IMG/VR virus record: IMGVR_UViG_2609459801_000016
Reading direction: 5' to 3' (one strand)
Source: a virus
Lineage: Duplodnaviria; Heunggongvirae; Uroviricota; Caudoviricetes
DNA length: 10,666 bases
Shown: in pieces, positions 1,284 through 10,666 of the stretch
How positions within the stretch are numbered: the first letter of the stretch is position 1
How the letters are laid out: every line of letters starts with the position of its first letter
Program-made: the position numbers and the translations under genes
The notes under the pieces: model-generated
What the model saw: only the letters and a program-made list of their open reading frames with translations
Told to the model about the DNA's origin: nothing
The model's database searches: none

Positions 1284-1426
1284 GGGGTGCCGGTGGGGTC
1301 GAGATACGTGGTGTTTTCTTTCCCTTCCCAGTAGCCGGTGTAGTGCGTGGCAATAGTGAACGTCCCGGCTCCGGCCAGAACAAGGGCAATCAGCTTTTTA
1401 CGCAGTGGCGCGGGGAGTTTTGGCAT
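1280..1426 (-). pseudogene. 5' fragment (48 codons) of a SAR-type lysozyme endolysin, truncated by the IS insertion
   Basis: ATG at 1426..1424, translation MPKLPAPLRKKLIALVLAGAGTFTIATHYTGYWEGKENTTYLDPTGTP then TAA at 1282..1280 inside the putative IS terminus. Lys-rich N-terminus plus Gly/Ala-rich weakly hydrophobic segment resembles a signal-anchor-release domain. E34-G35...Y41-L42-D43...G46 fits the start of the E-8aa-D-5aa-T catalytic motif of T4-lysozyme-like (GH24) endolysins; the reading frame is cut just before the expected Thr. Confidence 0.5.
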
Positions 1427-1497: not shown

Positions 1498-1920
1498 TCA
1501 GAAAAGCCGGGGCTGCGTGCGCTCCTGATGCAGGCGACGCTGGTTGCGGATAACGGAGTAAATCTGCGTCTCTGACATCTGGTAATGGCGGCGCAGGGTT
1601 TCAATTTTTTCGCCCTGGCTCCAGCGGGAAAAAATTTCATTATTGCGCAGTTCGGTGAAAAGGGATTCACCGACCGGGAGATAATAACCACGCCCGCCCA
1701 TGTACCCGGCCTGTGCGGCTGCAACCTTACGGGCAAGCATTCCCGCCTGAGCAGGTTCAATCCCCTGACGGTGCAGTTCAGCACTGATCACATCAACCAG
1801 GTCCCGCAGCGTGCCGGGCCAGTTCTTTTTCAGCTCATCATCAGGAATATCATCCAGACGGTCAATCAGCGCGTGCAGCTGTTCGCTGTCACCAAACATG
1901 CTCATCTGTGTTTCAGCCAT
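1498..1920 (-). CDS. mor: Mor/C-family transcriptional activator (Mor-like), 140 aa
   Basis: ATG at 1920 preceded by GGAGG 5 nt upstream. The translation aligns by eye along its length with phage Mu Mor as I recall it (FGD near N-terminus, central GG..Y.P.G, C-terminal HTH-like ...IYSVIRNQRRL...QP.L). Position directly after gemA matches Mu gene order. Confidence 0.75.
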   Translation of the reverse strand: MAETQMSMFGDSEQLHALIDRLDDIPDDELKKNWPGTLRDLVDVISAELHRQGIEPAQAGMLARKVAAAQAGYMGGRGYYLPVGESLFTELRNNEIFSRWSQGEKIETLRRHYQMSETQIYSVIRNQRRLHQERTQPRLF

Positions 1921-1950
1921 ACCCGCCTCCGGTCATCATTACACAGGGCA

Positions 1951-1986
1951 AGTTTAAAATAAAAATCCCGCGCTGTGGCGGGATTT
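1951..1986 (-). terminator. Putative Rho-independent terminator/attenuator between gemA-like and mor-like genes
   Basis: On the minus-strand transcript: 9-bp stem AAAUCCCGC / GCGGGAUUU (plus coordinates 1963-1971 and 1978-1986) with a 6-nt loop, followed immediately by UUAUUUUAAACU (1951-1962). It begins 4 nt after the gemA-like stop codon. Confidence 0.5.
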
Positions 1987-1990
1987 GGGG

Positions 1991-2503
1991 TTAAAAGGGG
2001 GAGGATTCTTCATACAGCCTGCAAACGCGCTCATAACTCATCACTGTACGCGCTGACATCCCCAGCACATCCAGCATCTTGCGGCGGTGCCAGCGTTTGA
2101 GACGCTCCAGCACATCAGAGGCCAGCGCGGGGTGTTGTTCCAGCCACTGCCAGTTAGCCACACCTTCGCCGCCGTTCTGAGCGACCGTCTGCGATTTCAC
2201 CCAGCGGTTAAGGGCTGTTTCCCCGCCATCAGAGATAAAGCCCTGCCGGTGCATCACCTTCCAGATGGCGCGAATTTTGGCGGTCACCGTACCCGGTTTT
2301 AAGGCCCGGTTAACCGGCTTCTGACGCACTTTAAAACCGCGTTTTTTGAAAACATCCAGCACGCGGGATAACTCATCCGGTGACATATCCCGGCAACTGG
2401 GTTTGCCGGTGGCTGCCAGTAGTACGGATGTGTAGGTCTCATGGTCAAGCTGTAGATCGCGTTTTGCGACATGTATTAAGGTAATCAGGGAAGCGCGATT
2501 CAT
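1991..2503 (-). CDS. gemA: GemA-like protein (phage Mu gp16 / DUF1018 family), 170 aa
   Basis: ATG at 2503 with GGAGA 7 nt upstream. N-terminal LITLIHVAKRDLQLDHETYTSVLLAATGKPSCRDMSPDELSRVLDVFKKRGFK fits the GemA/DUF1018 pattern as I remember it. Lies directly upstream of the mor-like gene, as in Mu. Confidence 0.7.
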   Translation of the reverse strand: MNRASLITLIHVAKRDLQLDHETYTSVLLAATGKPSCRDMSPDELSRVLDVFKKRGFKVRQKPVNRALKPGTVTAKIRAIWKVMHRQGFISDGGETALNRWVKSQTVAQNGGEGVANWQWLEQHPALASDVLERLKRWHRRKMLDVLGMSARTVMSYERVCRLYEESSPF

Positions 2504-2567
2504 TATCGTGTCTCCGTAACAACAGGCGGCATGGCAACGCCGCCCGGATAAAACTAAAGGTATCGAT

Positions 2568-2915
2568 ATGAAAATAGATTACGATGAAGTATTAAGTATT
2601 CTCACAACTTTTCAGGATGCTGAAACACCTTTCCTTACACTACAGGATCTGGGCATGGCTGAGGCAGAAGGAGAGGAAAAGGATAAAAAAGTTTTTCATC
2701 TTATGCTTCTCGCTGATAATGGCTCAATTGTTAATGGTGATATGCAGTCAGAAACACCCAAATATATTGGTTTCTTTTTCCATTCTCTGGGCGTTGGTTT
2801 CAGAAACACGCCCATTATGCTTACCCAGCAGGGGCATGATTTAGCTAACGCCCTGAGAAAAAACCAATCCTTGAAAGAATCAAAAAGGAGTTTACAGACG
2901 CACCATTTGATCTAA
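2568..2915 (+). CDS. Hypothetical 115-aa protein on the opposite strand to the early operon; possibly DUF2513-like
   Basis: ATG at 2568 with AAAGG 7 nt upstream; no competing minus-strand ORF of 60 aa or more. Visibly more AT-rich than the flanking genes. MKIDYDEVLSIL..., FHLMLLADNGSIV and LTQQGHDLANAL loosely resemble the remembered DUF2513 pattern (MKRDxDLIRxIL...HLxLLxEAGLI...LTWxGHDFLD); this assignment is tentative. Confidence 0.55.
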   Translation: MKIDYDEVLSILTTFQDAETPFLTLQDLGMAEAEGEEKDKKVFHLMLLADNGSIVNGDMQSETPKYIGFFFHSLGVGFRNTPIMLTQQGHDLANALRKNQSLKESKRSLQTHHLI

Positions 2916-2938
2916 TTAAAGAAGTTACCAAATCAATG

Positions 2939-3247
2939 TTAACCAGGTTCGTCAAAGAACGTATTGGGATTGACTGAACAACTTAATTCAGCCAGTAATC
3001 GCAGGGCGGCGACAGCCGCCTGCTTGTCACTTCTTTTAGCTATTTCCGCAAGAGTATGCACAATCCATAACGGACTTAACGCCACGGCTGAATCCAGAAT
3101 CATGTCATCCATAATAATTTCTGGCATATCCCGCTTGTCACATTCTTTATCCATAAAAGAAACGAATTTCTCTGCATCTTCCGGTTTCATGCCTCCGGCG
3201 ATAAGGATTTTGCGATATTCATAAGACGATCTTAATTCAATACTCAT
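2939..3247 (-). CDS. Hypothetical protein, 102 aa (last gene of the gam-to-gemA cassette)
   Basis: ATG at 3247 with AGGTGA 3 nt upstream; 15-bp gap from the upstream gene. No family recognised. Confidence 0.55.
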   Translation of the reverse strand: MSIELRSSYEYRKILIAGGMKPEDAEKFVSFMDKECDKRDMPEIIMDDMILDSAVALSPLWIVHTLAEIAKRSDKQAAVAALRLLAELSCSVNPNTFFDEPG

Positions 3248-3262
3248 TATTCACCTGCCTGC

Positions 3263-3613
3263 TTAATCTGTTTCCAGTGCTTTGCTACGGGCTATAGCCT
3301 CACATTCAAAAAATACCGACTCCGGCACGCGCTCTTTTAATTCACGAACAAGGAAATCATTAACGCGTTCATGACGTCTTATATTTCTTTCCTTTTCCTC
3401 CTGGCGCAATACAGCAAGGCGGTATTCAACAGCCCGGCGTTGTTTCTGAAAGACAGCCAGTGCTTTTCTGGCAGCATTACGCCATGCATCATCGCCACAT
3501 GGTGCGTATTCAAGCTGAAATTTAATCTCTTCAATAGTTTCTTTGATTTTTGCCAGCAAGCTAAGACAGTCGCTTATTGTCTCCAGCTTTTCATTATCAA
3601 TATAACTTCTCAC
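3263..3613 (-). CDS. Hypothetical charged, probably helical protein, about 116 aa
   Basis: The ORF track begins at a GTG at 3655. I prefer the in-frame GTG at 3613..3611 because it is preceded by GGGAGGTG with 6-nt spacing and overlaps the upstream stop as GTGA. Lys/Arg/Glu-rich sequence; no family recognised. Confidence 0.5.
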   Translation of the reverse strand: MRSYIDNEKLETISDCLSLLAKIKETIEEIKFQLEYAPCGDDAWRNAARKALAVFQKQRRAVEYRLAVLRQEEKERNIRRHERVNDFLVRELKERVPESVFFECEAIARSKALETD

Positions 3614-3939
3614 GCATTCACCTCCCGTAATTCCGGTAAAGCCGAAATATGACACCAGTGCGTCACCTGTCCGTCTTCATCTTCAAGGCAGGCTCCGGTT
3701 TCTTCATCAACAAAAAAGCCTTCATACCCCATATGGCCGATGCGCAGCTCCTGACGGTGACCATACTGAACAATCAGCACGACAGCCTCCATATCAGGTG
3801 GGAAAGTATCATTCAGTGAATGCCAGGGATAACCGCGTAAATCCCCGAAATAAACACCGGTCAGCGTTCCGCCACAGAGCGGCATTCCGGCGGCACACAC
3901 AAGAGGTTCATCTGATTCAACAAATAAGGTCGTTATCAT
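3610..3939 (-). CDS. Hypothetical protein, 109 aa; C-terminal VTHW...LPE motif reminiscent of DUF551 phage proteins
   Basis: ATG at 3939 overlaps the upstream stop as ATGA, with GGGAG 8 nt upstream. The C-terminal GQVTHWCHISALPE resembles the conserved C-terminal motif of DUF551 proteins as I recall them; weak assignment. Confidence 0.55.
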   Translation of the reverse strand: MITTLFVESDEPLVCAAGMPLCGGTLTGVYFGDLRGYPWHSLNDTFPPDMEAVVLIVQYGHRQELRIGHMGYEGFFVDEETGACLEDEDGQVTHWCHISALPELREVNA

Positions 3940-4487
3940 GGCGTTAACTCCCGTAATACAGCGTCCTCGGCAGTCCGGCGACGGTAATAAACTGCGTGAG
4001 CAGAATGTTCAGATATTCCAAACTTTTCGCCAATTTCCCGGAATGACAGACGGCGTGGGTAATCGGAATCACGCAGCGCACGTATAAGACGTACATCATC
4101 ATCAGATATGCGCGTGCCGGGGCGTAACTCTCCGCACTTTGTTAATCCAGCACCAATCATTCCTGCCCGACATCTGACAGAATCTTTATTACGTCCGAGA
4201 TATTCTCCCATTTGCTGGCAGGTCATTGTTCTGGCATTTTTTCGAATAAACTTATCTTCATCAGGTGTAAATCTTGGGTGTTTATATTTCAGTAACTCCG
4301 GGTATGAACTGCGCAATACACCAGTCCGGTTATATACAGCCCAGACAGTTCTTTTTATTCTGGCAGCAATATCCTTAACCGGGGTGGATGAATAAAGCGC
4401 AATCAGCAGCGCATCTTCTTCAGGTGTCCACGGACGGACATGAGCGGGGGCGCGACCTTTTAGTCCCATGGGTTGTAATTTCATCAT
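3936..4487 (-). CDS. Predicted DNA-binding protein with two Myb/GcrA-like HTH repeats and a third C-terminal HTH, 183 aa
   Basis: ATG at 4487 with GGGGGTGA upstream. Repeat 1 WTPEEDALLIALYSSTPVKDIAARIKRTVWAVYNRTGVL and repeat 2 FTPDEDKFIRKNARTMTCQQMGEYLGRNKDSVRCRAGMIG both follow the W/F-T-x-E/D-E-D...I/M-A/G...R..AV pattern of GcrA-N/Myb-like HTH domains. The C-terminal LSFREIGEKFGISEHSAHAVYYRR looks like a further HTH. Confidence 0.6.
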   Translation of the reverse strand: MMKLQPMGLKGRAPAHVRPWTPEEDALLIALYSSTPVKDIAARIKRTVWAVYNRTGVLRSSYPELLKYKHPRFTPDEDKFIRKNARTMTCQQMGEYLGRNKDSVRCRAGMIGAGLTKCGELRPGTRISDDDVRLIRALRDSDYPRRLSFREIGEKFGISEHSAHAVYYRRRTAEDAVLRELTP

Positions 4488-4490
4488 GCA

Positions 4491-5006
4491 TCACCCCCTG
4501 ACTCGCTTTTCAGCAGCATAAAACTCATCAGACAGTATTTCGGTCATTTTCTGTTTTGCGGGTTTTACGCCGCACTGAAGGTAAATCACATCGTCAACGC
4601 AGAACCACTTCACAGGGCCAAACAGGATTGCCGAGAAATCAATACCCAGCCAGAACAACAGCGCATCGGTTCTGGCATACGTGACGGGCGAATATTCACG
4701 CCACAGACTGTTCAGTTCATCAGAGGCAACACGCAGGGTTTTAGGGATACGTGATGTGCGCGGTGTGCAGCTCCAGCCATTCGACGCAGTCGGTTTTCGC
4801 CATAAGTCGCGATGAAAAGGATATTTGTCCTCCGTAAAACGCAGTCCCTTAAAGCAAAATCCACTGATACCGGATACAAATACCGACCGGCACGCAACAT
4901 TCAGCACGGCCTCAAGGCGTTTTGCCTCATCCTTAACTTTCTGGCAGTCCTGCTGGTATTTTTGCCACGCAGCCAGCGCGGAAGGGTTTGATGTTTTAAA
5001 GAACAT
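4491..5006 (-). CDS. Hypothetical protein, 171 aa
   Basis: ATG at 5006 with GGAGGTG 5 nt upstream; start overlaps the upstream stop as TAATG. No family recognised. Confidence 0.6.
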   Translation of the reverse strand: MFFKTSNPSALAAWQKYQQDCQKVKDEAKRLEAVLNVACRSVFVSGISGFCFKGLRFTEDKYPFHRDLWRKPTASNGWSCTPRTSRIPKTLRVASDELNSLWREYSPVTYARTDALLFWLGIDFSAILFGPVKWFCVDDVIYLQCGVKPAKQKMTEILSDEFYAAEKRVRG

Positions 5007-5539: not shown

Positions 5540-5684
5540 GATTTATTTCCCCACCACATTATTAATGACGATATAAACGTATTTCATATTTCTTAACCCT
5601 TATTTTCTGTTTTCAGGCGCAAGCAGTCCCCTGACGCGAGCGCCATAATTAAAATGAAGTGATATTTAATTGATTAATGCGGTG
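5540..5684 (-). promoter_or_regulatory. AT-rich 145-bp leader between gam and the downstream cassette; candidate internal promoter/operator
   Basis: Only long non-coding gap inside the otherwise tightly packed early operon. Contains the 11-bp perfect palindrome CATTATTAATG (5557-5567) about 18 nt upstream of the ATG and several -10/-35-like hexamers (TTAAGA, TATATC). No promoter could be assigned confidently by eye. Confidence 0.3.
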
Positions 5685-6215
5685 TTATTTATTCAGTCCG
5701 GCGTCCTGTTCAAAAGGCTCGACATAAAAACTTTCAGCGCCTTTATTCACCTTGATACCGGCAATGCCTTTCACAGCATCCGGCTCCGCCAGGACGGCTT
5801 CCTTGTTCACTTCCTCTTTCGTGCGGATGAAACGCTCAAGCCCCATACGGCGCAGCATTTCAATCACACCTTCCACATCACGGCTGACGCTGCATGATGG
5901 CGTTCCCAGCCGCCATGACACCGTTCCGGTGGTCAGATTGGCTGTTTTGGTTTTGCCGCCGTTCGTCAGCTCATCACGGTTGGTTTTGCACCAGTCCTGA
6001 ATCCCTTTAAAAAGCACTTTGATTTGCTTTTTAAGATTTTCAATCTGCGGCGTATAACGGGCGGTGATTTCTGCCACTTCGTCATTCATCGCCGTTTCCA
6101 GGCGCAGCGCCTCTCGCTGAATATCTCCCAGGGTGCGGATATCACGGCTGACTTCTTCCCGGGTCTGCGGTGCCGCCTCGGCTGCGGCCTTTAATTTTGT
6201 AACGCGTTTAGCCAT
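5685..6215 (-). CDS. gam: Host-nuclease inhibitor protein Gam (Mu Gam family), 176 aa
   Basis: ATG at 6215 with AAGGA upstream. The translation aligns along its whole length with Mu Gam as I recall it (e.g. ...WCKTNRDELTNGGKTKTANLTTGTVSWRL...RFIRTKEEVNKEAVL...PFEQDAGL). Confidence 0.9.
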   Translation of the reverse strand: MAKRVTKLKAAAEAAPQTREEVSRDIRTLGDIQREALRLETAMNDEVAEITARYTPQIENLKKQIKVLFKGIQDWCKTNRDELTNGGKTKTANLTTGTVSWRLGTPSCSVSRDVEGVIEMLRRMGLERFIRTKEEVNKEAVLAEPDAVKGIAGIKVNKGAESFYVEPFEQDAGLNK

Positions 6216-6226
6216 TTTGTTTTTCC

Positions 6227-6520
6227 TTATTGCAGTGTGCCTGATGCTTTATGCACGCGGTGGCGTTTAATGATGGCATCCGCTCCAAAAGACTGTGCAG
6301 ATGCCTGAAATTCCGCTGAGAGAAACTGAATAATTGCAGGACTGTGATACTGGAGAATACTTGCATAAACGTCACAGAGTGACGTCGGCCTGTTATCCGT
6401 ATCACGTTCTGTTTTCACATCCACTCCAATCTTTTCATGCACTTCAACACAGTCATTGCCTGCCAACTTTTCGTCATGCGAAACATGATTAAATTCAAAA
6501 ATAACGCGTACTTTGCTCAT
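6227..6520 (-). CDS. Hypothetical small protein, 97 aa; paralog of the adjacent upstream gene
   Basis: The track ORF starts at 6547, but the ATG at 6520 is preceded by AGGGG 7 nt upstream and lies just after the upstream stop. The N-terminus MSKVRVIFEF closely matches MSKVVRIIFEY of the 6525-6797 protein, and the start regions are also similar at the DNA level. Confidence 0.6.
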   Translation of the reverse strand: MSKVRVIFEFNHVSHDEKLAGNDCVEVHEKIGVDVKTERDTDNRPTSLCDVYASILQYHSPAIIQFLSAEFQASAQSFGADAIIKRHRVHKASGTLQ

Positions 6521-6524
6521 GGAA

Positions 6525-6797
6525 TTACCCCTGTTGATTAAATTCATTACCGTTAATAACCCCGGAAGCCATGCCTCTGTCTTTCATGAATGCACTGGCT
6601 TTCATTGCCACAAACTCTGCGAAGTTTCTGCTTTCTGCCAGCATAACCACCCCAAAAATCATGGCGGGTCCATTATCTTTCTTCTTTATTCCGGTTGAAC
6701 GTATATCCAGACTTACCCCTCTGTGCGTGCTGCCATCAGAGTTTTTGCAGATAACATCTTCCTTGTATTCGAAAATAATGCGTACGACTTTACTCAT
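6525..6797 (-). CDS. Hypothetical small protein, 90 aa; paralog of the adjacent downstream gene
   Basis: ATG at 6797 overlapping the upstream stop as ATGA, with GAGGA upstream. Shares N-terminal and scattered internal similarity with the 6227-6520 product. Confidence 0.6.
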   Translation of the reverse strand: MSKVVRIIFEYKEDVICKNSDGSTHRGVSLDIRSTGIKKKDNGPAMIFGVVMLAESRNFAEFVAMKASAFMKDRGMASGVINGNEFNQQG

Positions 6798-7567: not shown

Positions 7568-8500
7568 TCACACCTGTGAGAGTAATTCAGGGTTGGTATA
7601 AACCTCTTTAAAGGCCGCATTAATATGTTTTTCTGTCAGCGCCGCGCCTTCACCGCTGGCGGTGAGCCACGCCTGGTTAAGCGTATGTGTCAGAACGCGT
7701 AACGCTCCCGGCTTTTCAGCGATAGCCTGCATGACGGCCAGCTCGGCCTCACCACTGATCCCCCACGCCATGGCAATGGCCAGCACATCCGCCTTTTTGG
7801 CCTTGCGAAGTTGTTTTGTACGGGCAAGACGGCTGAACAGGCGCGATAAATCATCAAAGGCGCGGCGTCCACCTTTAAACAATCCGCGCGGGTTACCAAT
7901 AAGCACCATCCCGATCCCCGTGGCGTCCTGAATTGCCCGGAGTTGCTCCAGACCGTCAATACCAAGATGATCCGCCTCATCCACAATCACCAGTCCACGC
8001 GTTCCCATCAGGCGACGGCGGATGGCGCGGGATAATGCCCCTTTGTTCGCGCGGGTGTAATCAATCCCCAGCGCATCGGCCAGCTCCAGCAGACACTCCG
8101 TGACGCTGGAGTGCGCGGGTGACAGGGTGATCATCCAGGTGTTTGGTTGCTCCTGGCAGTAATTACGGGCAGTGGCCGTTTTACCCACACCCGGTACGCC
8201 CACAATAACGTTAATACAGCCCATCAGGCGAACCGCCTGAAACAGTGCGCGCAGCTCCTGGACTGTCTGAGTTTCCACAAACTGCGGCGGTTCCGGCAGT
8301 GCGCTTTGTTTATTCCAGTTCTCATACCAGGAGCGCAGGGAAGCAGCCACAGCGGCGTTATCGCCTTTATATTTCCCCTTGCGGAAAGCCGATAATGTGC
8401 CGTCGGAAATTCCCGCCTCTCTGGCGATGGCATACTGCGTCAGCACGCCGCCATCAATAAGTTCATCAATGGTCTTGATTACATCGTTTATATCGGTCAT
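7568..8500 (-). CDS. B: MuB-like transposition ATPase / target DNA activator, 310 aa
   Basis: ATG at 8500 with GAGGT upstream. Walker A GVPGVGKT, Walker B-like LVIVDEADHL, and end-to-end similarity to Mu B as I recall it (ETQTV..., KPGALRVL...). Lies directly downstream of the transposase. Confidence 0.9.
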   Translation of the reverse strand: MTDINDVIKTIDELIDGGVLTQYAIAREAGISDGTLSAFRKGKYKGDNAAVAASLRSWYENWNKQSALPEPPQFVETQTVQELRALFQAVRLMGCINVIVGVPGVGKTATARNYCQEQPNTWMITLSPAHSSVTECLLELADALGIDYTRANKGALSRAIRRRLMGTRGLVIVDEADHLGIDGLEQLRAIQDATGIGMVLIGNPRGLFKGGRRAFDDLSRLFSRLARTKQLRKAKKADVLAIAMAWGISGEAELAVMQAIAEKPGALRVLTHTLNQAWLTASGEGAALTEKHINAAFKEVYTNPELLSQV

Positions 8501-8539: not shown

Positions 8540-8580
8540 AATAACCTGAGTCGCCGCTCGGGTTATTTTTTTATTTCAGG
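8540..8580. other. Stem-loop with T/A-rich flanks in the A-B intergenic region
   Basis: AATAACCTGAG (8540-8550) / CTCGGGTTATT (8557-8567): 11-bp stem with one G-U pair and a 6-nt loop. Followed on the plus strand by TTTTTTATTT, and on the minus-strand mRNA by UUGAUUAAAC before the B ribosome-binding site. Confidence 0.4.
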
Positions 8581-10666
8581 CCAGAGGGTCATTTTCTTTT
8601 AATTTCGCTTCAAGCAGCTGCAATCCCCGCTGGAAATTACGCTCGTATTCTTCATCAGGTTCATCGTCAGCGACCGGTTGCTGAACGATCACCGTATTAC
8701 CCACAGGGCGGTATATATTTTCCAGCCACGGCTCCTGTGGCTTGTGCTCCAGCACGTTGACAATCTCATCCTCGGCATCACGGATTTTTTCCTCTGCGCG
8801 TTTACGCATGCCTTTAAGGCGCTGCTGCTGTTTGTGGTATTCCGCGCTGACCGGGAAGGCTTCGCGTTTATTGCCGTCCCATACCGCCTCGCAAATCACG
8901 CTGCCATCCAGGCGACGTACGGTAATTCGTTCGGCATCATGAATGTCATAGCTGATAAGCACCTTACGACCATGCTCGTCACGCAGCTCGGGCGCGTAGT
9001 AAATATTATTCAGCCAGCGTATTTCACAGCGTCTTACAGGGCGTTCCACCATCGGCCGGAACATATCCCGCAGCTCAACATCGGACAGCCATTCAATTTC
9101 CGTGTCCTCTTCCGCCAGGCGTTTTTTTCTGAACTCCGCCGGGCTGTAATGCTTGCCGTTCGGCTTCACCGGTAATTCATCGTGCGGCCGGTTGTTGTAC
9201 CACTCAACACCATCACGAATGGCATCAATCAGTTCAGCCCAGGACGGTGAATCACGCATCGCTGACTGCTGCCGGGCGTTCAGCCGTTTGCCCTGTTGCA
9301 GGGCAGTAAATGCCGAGCGTAAATCGCGGTTGGTTTTGCGTAACGTCTCGCGATCTGCACCTTTCCCGAAATAGGTGCGGTATTTACGGGCTATGCGCAT
9401 CGGTAATGTGCGGTTAAGCCGTTCGATAATGCCTCGTCCCTGCGGATTACCGGCAATCCCGGTCGGGTGATTAATCCCCAGTCGCGGCAGTATCCCCACA
9501 ACCTCCTTATCCAGGATGTCGGCGGTTTCCCCGGAGCCGTTATCCGAGTAATACAGAAACGGTTTGCCGTGATGGCGAATGCCGTGCTGTATGGCACCGG
9601 CTACGGCGAAAACATTTTCAGCCAGGTCAAGGCTCCAGCCCACCACAAAGCGCGTGCCACCGTCGATAACAAAGGTCACTTCCGGTGCAAATGGCCGACC
9701 GTGAACCGGGTGTGCGCATTTCAGCTTCATGCCGTGACCGTCACCAATCCAGACATAATTCACCGGCATTCTGGACCAGTCGCGGCGCGTGAATCCCTCA
9801 AGCTGGCGGTATTCACTGCCGGTCACCCGGCCTTTTTGTTTCACCACTTCCGGCAGTTTCTTCATTGCGCGGCGAATGGTGTCATAAGACGGCATGATAT
9901 CGAGCATATAAGGCTCATCAGCGTGCCGGTGCTGCCATTCAGCGACAAAATCCTCGTAAGCCTCGGTCATTGGTCGGCCGTTTGACTGGCGATACTGCGC
10001 CAGAAATTCGGGCAGCCAGTTAATATCTTCGGCTTTTATTTCCTGGCGCTTACCCGGTGCCAGTAAAAGCAGGCGTTCAGCGGCGTTCTGCGCCTTGTTA
10101 AAGGCCGCAATCCAGCGTTTCAGCGTGATTTCACTTAACGCGCGGCTGTTTCCCTTTTTGGCGTTCGCCGTCTCAACCATTGCCACAATGCGCTCGTCCA
10201 GCTGCGAACGTGCCAGGTTGTCAACGATAAACCGGATAGCCTTCGCACAGCTGAAACCAGGTTGTTGCGCGACTTTCAGAACTTCGCTGACGATCGCGAT
10301 TCGTGCATCAGCCACCTGGCGCTGGTTTTCAGTCAGGGCATTAAGGCGTTCGACCATCAGTTGTGGTGATCCGCGATATGCCTCCACCGCATCAACCACG
10401 GCAGGCGAGCGTCTGGCCTTTGTCACCACTGGAGCCGGTGATTCATCGACTTTTTGAGTCATCAGTTGCAGGGCGTAGCGTTCACGTAATGCCTGCTGCG
10501 TCACTTCAGGTAAACAGTCGATGCTGTATTCAGTTGCTTTAGAGCCTGAGCGACGACGGGAACAACAGCTTTTCCCTTGTACGTAACGTTGTAATGCCTG
10601 GCGAATACCTTTTGTTGTAGCAGGCATTCCGGGCGCACCAATCAGTTCTTTTGCAATGACATACAT
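8576..10666 (-). CDS. A: MuA-like DDE transposase, 696 aa
   Basis: ATG at the window edge (10666..10664); the true start could be a codon or two upstream but the N-terminus (YVIAKELIGAPGMP) aligns with the Mu A N-terminus as I recall it. Central catalytic region (...WIGDGHGMKL..., ...YYSDNGSGE...) and C-terminal RPVGNT...DDEPDEEYER tail also resemble Mu A. Confidence 0.9.
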   Translation of the reverse strand: MYVIAKELIGAPGMPATTKGIRQALQRYVQGKSCCSRRRSGSKATEYSIDCLPEVTQQALRERYALQLMTQKVDESPAPVVTKARRSPAVVDAVEAYRGSPQLMVERLNALTENQRQVADARIAIVSEVLKVAQQPGFSCAKAIRFIVDNLARSQLDERIVAMVETANAKKGNSRALSEITLKRWIAAFNKAQNAAERLLLLAPGKRQEIKAEDINWLPEFLAQYRQSNGRPMTEAYEDFVAEWQHRHADEPYMLDIMPSYDTIRRAMKKLPEVVKQKGRVTGSEYRQLEGFTRRDWSRMPVNYVWIGDGHGMKLKCAHPVHGRPFAPEVTFVIDGGTRFVVGWSLDLAENVFAVAGAIQHGIRHHGKPFLYYSDNGSGETADILDKEVVGILPRLGINHPTGIAGNPQGRGIIERLNRTLPMRIARKYRTYFGKGADRETLRKTNRDLRSAFTALQQGKRLNARQQSAMRDSPSWAELIDAIRDGVEWYNNRPHDELPVKPNGKHYSPAEFRKKRLAEEDTEIEWLSDVELRDMFRPMVERPVRRCEIRWLNNIYYAPELRDEHGRKVLISYDIHDAERITVRRLDGSVICEAVWDGNKREAFPVSAEYHKQQQRLKGMRKRAEEKIRDAEDEIVNVLEHKPQEPWLENIYRPVGNTVIVQQPVADDEPDEEYERNFQRGLQLLEAKLKENDPLA

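Follow-up and report, generated by a model that had tools for sequence, protein, structure and literature searches.

A truncated allele of a DUF2513-like gene lying antisense in the early region of a Mu-like Escherichia coli prophage

The closest described relatives of the gene examined here are the prophage proteins grouped in PF10711 (DUF2513) and PHROG 585, which fall in a length class of approximately 130 to 145 amino acids (aa). Its setting recalls two further kinds of system. One is that of the lysogen-expressed accessory genes known as morons, with gene orders such as rexAB after cI in lambda and sieA beside mnt in P22. The other is the 'semi-essential' accessory early region of Mu, from gam to gemA, where small genes are dispensable, as they are here, and where no gene on the opposite strand is known. 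The DNA analyzed is a stretch of 10,666 nucleotides (nt; hereafter the window) from IMG/VR virus record IMGVR_UViG_2609459801_000016, a tailed phage (Caudoviricetes). It covers the early region of a Mu-like Escherichia coli prophage, which reads on the minus strand, and our subject is a 115-codon open reading frame (ORF) on the plus strand, antisense to these early genes. This ORF is a -1 frameshift allele, produced by a one-base deletion, of a 136-codon gene. Our reading of the locus as a whole, which we hold to be probable though far from secure, is that it is the truncated allele of an accessory gene acting on the lysogen side and encoding a divergent 136-aa DUF2513 protein with a winged-helix fold.

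The gene shares with the PF10711 and PHROG 585 proteins their length class and a match across the whole model, and differs in having a conserved convergent partner and a fixed antisense position in Mu-like elements, neither of which appears in any description of the family. Like morons, it lies against lytic operons or right after a repressor gene, varies in presence among close relatives and has a GC content below the phage average. Its product has neither a membrane segment nor any similarity to the Rex and Sie proteins, and unlike lysogen-expressed morons the gene is stable at one position across a clade and belongs to a convergent gene pair. The neighborhood (gam, gp11, gp12, gemA and mor) is the same as in Mu, although the DUF2513-like gene itself is absent from Mu.

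The 115-codon ORF and its intact relatives

The features that define the gene, in window coordinates, are as follows.

2557-2560, plus strand: AAGG Shine-Dalgarno sequence, 7 nt 5' of the ATG (AAGGA at the same place in homologs)
2568-2915, plus strand: the 115-codon ORF, in which codons 1-98 are the authentic N-terminal winged-helix part and codons 99-115 are out of frame
2858-2863, plus strand: A6 homopolymer, the frameshift site (A7 in intact relatives)
2864-2977, plus strand: remainder of the ancestral gene in the third frame, ..PILERIKKEFTDAPFDLIKEVTKSMLTRFVKERIGID, with TGA at 2975-2977, encoding the conserved C-terminal helices

An earlier note on this DNA had described the ORF at 2568-2915 as a gene with its own ribosome-binding site, the only well-supported one in the window reading against the early operon. 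The ORF is present as described, the AAGG lies 7 nt before its ATG, and in the phage part of the window it is indeed alone on its strand. The RefSeq record of an identical stretch likewise shows a single plus-strand coding sequence among the early genes. The ORF is not intact, however. In a direct alignment, five of six near-identical complete E. coli genomes were one base longer, with A7 where the window has A6. The A7 genomes list here a 136-aa 'DUF2513 domain-containing protein' (the name RefSeq gives to this protein), whose gene overlaps the 102-aa gene facing it by 39 nt. The intact gene thus comprises 136 codons and ends at 2977, and the copy in the window has been shortened by a -1 frameshift that removes the conserved C-terminal helices. 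As a result the 115-aa product ends in 17 out-of-frame residues. The 23 nt measured in the earlier note between the two convergent stop codons were counted correctly and are a by-product of the same frameshift; in the intact arrangement the genes overlap.

The exact 115-aa protein was found on 125 contigs from several sources, which indicates that the allele is real, while the exact intact protein was found on at least 1000 contigs. Inactivation is recurrent, as two further alleles represent independent events: P0169 has lost a C beside an intact A7, and P0004 is shifted at a different homopolymer, with destruction of the fold. Lacking the conserved helices, the protein encoded in the window is most likely inactive. 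The viral contig IMGVR_UViG_2740892236_000004 (loci L020, L021 and L047) carries a DUF2513-like gene in three overlapping pieces approximately 10 nt apart, which could be a scaffolding artefact or a rearrangement.

The A7 run is restricted to this E. coli lineage, and since other lineages have 2 to 5 A at the site, the comparison points to a mutational hotspot rather than a conserved slippery site. We therefore rejected programmed frameshifting, and consider it very improbable that the A-run is a programmed slippage or phase-variation site yielding either a full-length or a winged-helix-only protein, even though two independent -1 events at the same spot lead into the same 115-aa frame (P0163 and P0169), the allele is common (125 contigs) and the winged helix and C-terminal helices are separated exactly at the break. 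Elsewhere the out-of-frame tail shows no conservation, and the P0004 frameshift occurred in a different run with loss of the fold, a pattern that fits a mutational hotspot in a dispensable gene.

The gene had also been called visibly more AT-rich than its neighbors. Its GC content (0.39) and third-position GC (GC3, 0.37) are the lowest in the window, against a phage average of 0.51. The description holds with respect to gemA and mor (0.55) and fails on the other side, where the adjoining genes are at 0.42-0.43; several other small early genes are likewise at approximately 0.42.

Family membership, fold and selection

The resemblance to DUF2513, which the earlier note had suggested, was confirmed, with a qualification as to its strength. 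The 115-aa product matches PF10711 with E = 5.8e-5 and 23.8 bits over model positions 1-95 of 100. The intact 136-aa protein and P0001 score 23.6 and 22.2 bits (E of about 6e-5; model positions 1-96 of 100 covered). The curated gathering threshold of this family is 29.6 bits, so that scores of 22.2-23.8 bits do not confer Pfam membership. A link to accepted members was found through intermediate sequences: 45 of the 75 full-length homologs recovered by an exhaustive phmmer search match PF10711 at E <= 1e-3 (best 9.2e-15), and the precomputed Pfam match of P0002 is PF10711. On the strength of these homologs, and despite its sub-threshold score, we take the protein to be a divergent DUF2513 relative rather than a threshold-passing member. 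The match to PHROG 585 is full length (E = 7.1e-18, residues 1-134 against profile positions 1-126 of 128). It adds a divergent member to a family that is already described but has no assigned function. An exhaustive HMMER search yielded 113 family representatives, nearly all of 130-146 aa, which align from residue 1 to approximately residue 133; since they align end to end, the C terminus lost in the window belongs to the family core.

An AlphaFold model of very high confidence (predicted local distance difference test score, pLDDT, 96.8; predicted template modeling score, pTM, 0.89) shows a winged helix of the PadR/MarR-like type up to residue 96, followed by helices at residues 99-108 and 114-133. 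The segment at 2864-2977 encodes residues 99-133 of the intact protein, so that the frameshift strips exactly these conserved C-terminal helices. The likeness to PadR, MarR and HxlR regulators, and to TubR, extends to motifs of the type 'LL.D.GLI ... RLT..GHDF' at helix 3 and the wing, and a C-terminal helical extension is also found in the small PadR proteins, which dimerise through it. In our protein the modeled C-terminal helices, two or three in number, probably mediate dimerisation or partner binding, and the combination of a winged helix with probable dimerisation helices suggests a DNA-binding or protein-binding adaptor. Two features depart from the PadR/MarR/HxlR pattern: helix 2 is replaced by a variable acidic loop, and the helix in the recognition position is net negative. 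The family is acidic (median pI 5.3), with a mean net charge of -2.5 for helix 35-50 in the recognition position, +0.35 for the wing and about +2 for the last helix. The protein may thus act by binding DNA or, more likely, through another protein, a protein target being favored over DNA by the acidity. It is a small cytoplasmic acidic protein with no membrane segment. No Pfam match to PadR, MarR or HxlR was obtained at E values up to 1, and a search of a viral structure library gave nothing informative.

Pairs of homologs at 70-77% identity have a ratio of nonsynonymous to synonymous substitution rates (dN/dS) of approximately 0.1, and close pairs with few substitutions range from 0.05 to 0.47. 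These ratios show that the gene encodes a protein under purifying selection. We give next to no credence to the alternative that the ORF is a chance reading frame or an antisense shadow within the leader of gemA. The lack of a consensus promoter (see below) and the sub-threshold Pfam score would suit such an origin; more than 100 clusters hold full-length homologs, the Shine-Dalgarno sequence is conserved and the other strand contains no competing ORF. The homolog clusters, together with the pLDDT and dN/dS values, led us to reject a spurious ORF for the gene family.

A replaceable slot and a convergent partner gene

The surroundings of the gene are defined by the following features.

1991-2503, minus strand: gemA (gp16 family), divergent from the DUF2513-like gene
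2489-3002: replacement cassette relative to O157-type Mu-like prophages, with homology lost within the opening codons of gemA on one side and directly past the partner gene's AAVAAL motif on the other
2939-3247, minus strand: 102-aa partner gene (PHROG 1988), whose acidic product has five predicted helices and a disordered C-terminal tail
2939-2977: tail-to-tail overlap of 39 nt between the intact DUF2513-like gene and the partner gene, codon against codon

The gene is carried by 6 complete E. coli genomes. In approximately 218 E. coli genomes that carry related Mu-like prophages, similarity to the window is confined to the part from approximately position 3003 rightwards, and the slot holds two small co-directional genes, of PHROGs 17269 and 2358. 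In the O157-type loci L004 and L005 this alternative cassette spans 2437-2920 and encodes proteins of 98 aa (PHROG 17269) and 65 aa (PHROG 2358), and the homolog of the 102-aa gene has a different, longer C-terminal tail. Homology breaks at approximately 2489 and 3002 indicate that the slot is replaceable, and the gene is present in some close relatives and absent from others, as expected of a moron. The earlier note had proposed checking whether related prophages lack the gene at this position; these do, two unrelated genes standing in its place.

The picture of a moron inserted into the operon is supported with regard to this replaceability; a recent insertion is not supported. The same antisense slot beside gemA is occupied in Mu-like elements of Citrobacter, Edwardsiella, E. 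coli, Salmonella and metagenomes, by homologs at 34-54% identity that lie 30-71 nt from the divergent gemA and are convergent with the early genes. The GemA and MuB proteins encoded alongside differ to a comparable extent. The gene is a long-standing resident of this position throughout a clade of Mu-like phages and not a recent or sporadic insertion. It was found neither in Mu nor in other deposited phages, apart from two distant Klebsiella phage matches among 50,697 phage records.

Homologs also occur in other settings. At locus L042 the DUF2513-like gene and its partner sit between gemA and mor. In Erwinia and Providencia the pair is lodged in the baseplate operon of a myovirus, flanked by the genes for spike and sheath initiator, with the DUF2513-like gene antisense to it. 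At L045, which also has the pair, the DUF2513-like gene directly follows Arc/Mnt-like repressor genes, with an anti-repressor alongside. Two loci have the gene and no partner: at L033 it is downstream of a CI-like repressor with helix-turn-helix and S24 parts, and at L032 downstream of an Arc-like gene, both being immI-like regions in which it is convergent with tail genes. A 30%-identical homolog in a Klebsiella phage lies between the lysis genes and terminase; a convergent 111-aa gene beside it was considered as a partner and rejected, as it is not a homolog of the partner family. The Providencia baseplate clusters (L067-L069) have a second antisense gene at 3841-4191, between hub and spike, with a PF03526 colicin/microcin immunity match, an indication that this tail-gene cluster collects accessory genes on the opposite strand.

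Antisense placement in several unrelated settings, positions behind repressors and presence/absence polymorphism together point to an accessory gene with transcription of its own and expression in the lysogen, largely as the earlier note had proposed. Homologs just downstream of CI-like or Arc/Mnt-like repressors fit lysogen expression in particular.

The DUF2513-like gene is paired at nearly all loci, and wherever it is, its convergent neighbor belongs to one protein family, which comprises 44 clusters, all from Enterobacterales and all annotated as hypothetical. In most lineages, at 45-54% identity, the two genes overlap by 39 nt; in the others the figure is 33, 30, 18, 15, 0 or -3 nt. The C-terminal tail of the partner is predicted to be disordered and is missing where the genes do not overlap, so that the tail looks like a passive overprint of the C-terminal, lysine-rich helix of the DUF2513-like protein. 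This conserved convergent pairing is the sole mildly unusual aspect of the finding.

One possibility is that the pair works as a unit, with the DUF2513-like protein as an effector or sensor in the lysogen and the 102-aa protein, made from the lytic operon, binding it and switching it off. Such an arrangement would provide self-immunity while the phage itself grows lytically, and an escape for phages that carry the partner only. At least four settings contain both genes: the region upstream of gemA, the interval from gemA to mor, the baseplate operon and an immI-like region. In all of them the partner reads with the host operon and the DUF2513-like gene against it. In Providencia 4 nt (5001-5004) are shared by the end of the spike gene and the start of the partner gene, which may allow translational coupling, and O157-type prophages have the partner by itself. 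We nevertheless regard this explanation as unlikely: the DUF2513-like gene is partnerless in L032 and L033, the disordered tail resembles passive overprinting and the linkage could reflect shared 3' ends alone. The fold of the partner is uninformative, and in the PADLOC-DB 2.0 search the partner gave a chance-level match only (E = 0.068).

A more speculative version, which we judge quite unlikely, is that the pair constitutes an undescribed mobile two-gene prophage module that settles within unrelated lytic operons or beside immunity genes. The antisense protein would be anti-phage in the lysogen, the in-operon partner would neutralize it when the resident phage turns lytic, and partner-only phages would use the latter as a counter-measure.

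Where the 102-aa gene encodes its conserved AAVAA motif, the codons form a hairpin of 6-7 bp (3006-3021). The motif is also present in L004-L010, L022, L025, L034 and L064, and among 11 Mu-like loci 9 have complementary bases at the wobble positions of the hairpin, with G:C/A:T covariation. With regard to a terminator for the intact DUF2513-like gene, which ends inside the partner gene, the hairpin lies 29 nt past the stop codon and has a weak T tail. It was rejected as part of the DUF2513-like feature, as it also occurs in prophages without the gene.

Transcription, the gemA leader and the wider prophage

Returning to the reading of a lysogen-side accessory gene, the orientation of the DUF2513-like gene requires a promoter of its own, and an own promoter is also what homologs antisense to lytic operons or behind lysogeny repressors would imply. 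It would lie at or within the 5' end of gemA. The relevant features upstream of the gene are the following.

2504-2567: divergent intergenic region of 64 nt (30 nt in some lineages), from the start of gemA to the start of the DUF2513-like gene
2523-2546, minus strand: GC-rich terminator-like hairpin immediately ahead of the gemA ribosome-binding site, on the strand of the early operon

The 64-nt intergenic region is too short for an obvious promoter. Across 19 loci, a scan with a sigma-70 tool combined with our own scoring gave no consistent site. Upstream of the gene in the window and in most Mu-like loci no site reached 9 of 12 consensus matches, and 9-10 of 12 was found only in baseplate-type loci. 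The hairpin at 2523-2546 has a clear T-run in L007, L009 and L022 and a degenerate one in the window; in L009 and L022 the run is T6-T8 and the structure resembles a true terminator. Approximately 480 nt of untranslated antisense sequence lie ahead of it. An Rfam search of 1900-3700 gave no match.

This region is also where a different role for the gene would have to be located, namely that of a built-in regulator of phage development. A winged-helix dimer would bind the short intergenic region and gate early read-through into gemA and mor as an early-to-middle switch, with convergent transcription and the hairpin before gemA sharing in the gating. The position of the gene is suggestive in this regard, as many Mu-like lineages keep it at a fixed place, immediately upstream of gemA or in the interval from gemA to mor, with the two start codons only 30-70 nt apart, and so are the MarR/PadR-type fold and the early-strand hairpin with its T-run before the gemA ribosome-binding site in L007, L009 and L022. 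We place this explanation at a low probability, as the pair also occurs in the baseplate operon and in immI-like regions that have neither gemA nor mor, nearly identical prophages lack the gene, frameshift alleles are in circulation and the acidic protein carries negative charge on the helix that occupies the recognition position. In addition, no conserved operator-like repeat was found beyond what the coding of gemA accounts for. Palindrome-like DNA in the first gemA codons was not counted as an operator, because conserved LIxLIH coding explains it.

If the gene is an accessory gene of the lysogen, as we favor, it would be expressed mainly in the lysogen and would benefit it, either through immunity to or exclusion of other phages or through fine control of lysogeny. 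After induction, transcription of the early operon would run antisense through the gene and shut it off. Several observations weigh against this reading. We infer lysogen expression from gene order alone, and no sigma-70 consensus promoter was found upstream of the gene in the window or in other Mu-like loci, where the best sites match at 7-8 of 12 positions. The gene is dispensable in nature, as seen from the alternative cassette and the frameshift alleles. The acidity and the negatively charged helix in the recognition position tell against classical DNA binding, and the distant homolog in one Klebsiella phage is co-directional with late genes. The protein matched no defence model of PADLOC-DB 2.0 and no NCBIfam family, a sequence search of the PDB returned no relative of solved structure, and in published work on DUF2513/PF10711 and on antisense genes of Mu-like phages or gemA we found no function. 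The superinfection-exclusion or defence role put forward in the earlier note thus found no counterpart among known defence families, and such a role for the DUF2513-like protein is a guess.

The results have three consequences. The annotation is corrected from an intact 115-aa moron to a truncated allele of an overlapping 136-aa gene. A family of unknown function gains a testable setting, with putative lysogen expression, a candidate partner protein and, to serve as a control, a naturally occurring loss-of-function allele. For comparative work, they describe a DUF2513 branch that is kept antisense to lytic operons across a clade, moves with one small gene and lies elsewhere behind lysogeny repressors. 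These data show no defence function, and they open no long-standing question.

The remaining features of the window are those of the prophage as a whole.

1-1283: IS186, inside the prophage lysozyme gene, with its transposase ORF at 1-1113 on the plus strand
1498-1920: mor, minus-strand early region
5685-6215: Gam, minus-strand early region
7568-8500: MuB, minus-strand early region
8576-10666: transposase A, minus-strand early region
Minus-strand early region: gp11-like, gp12-like and SANT/Myb-like genes

IMG/VR contig L019 corresponds to the window from position 838 onwards, with 2 mismatches in 9,137 nt. The prophage is decaying in another respect too, as IS186 interrupts its lysozyme gene. 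Of this gene the first 47 codons remain (1284-1426, minus strand), whereas L001 and L002 keep an intact gene of 501 nt, so that the prophage of the window is probably lysis-defective.

A strong intrinsic terminator on the early strand (1963-1986, minus strand; 9-bp stem and T-run) lies between the gemA stop and the mor start, and expression of Mor must therefore use read-through or a promoter in the following 40 nt or so. In a widespread E. coli Mu-like lineage (L064-L066) there are two Mor-family genes, at 6269-6658 and 8018-8428, the first right after gemA and the second approximately 1.4 kb further on, beside the DUF2513-like gene and its partner. Some near-identical relatives have an extra 180-aa gene between the gp11-like gene and gam (6095-6637 in L002), which is absent from the window (at about 5540-5684) and from L001 and marks another variable slot of the early region.
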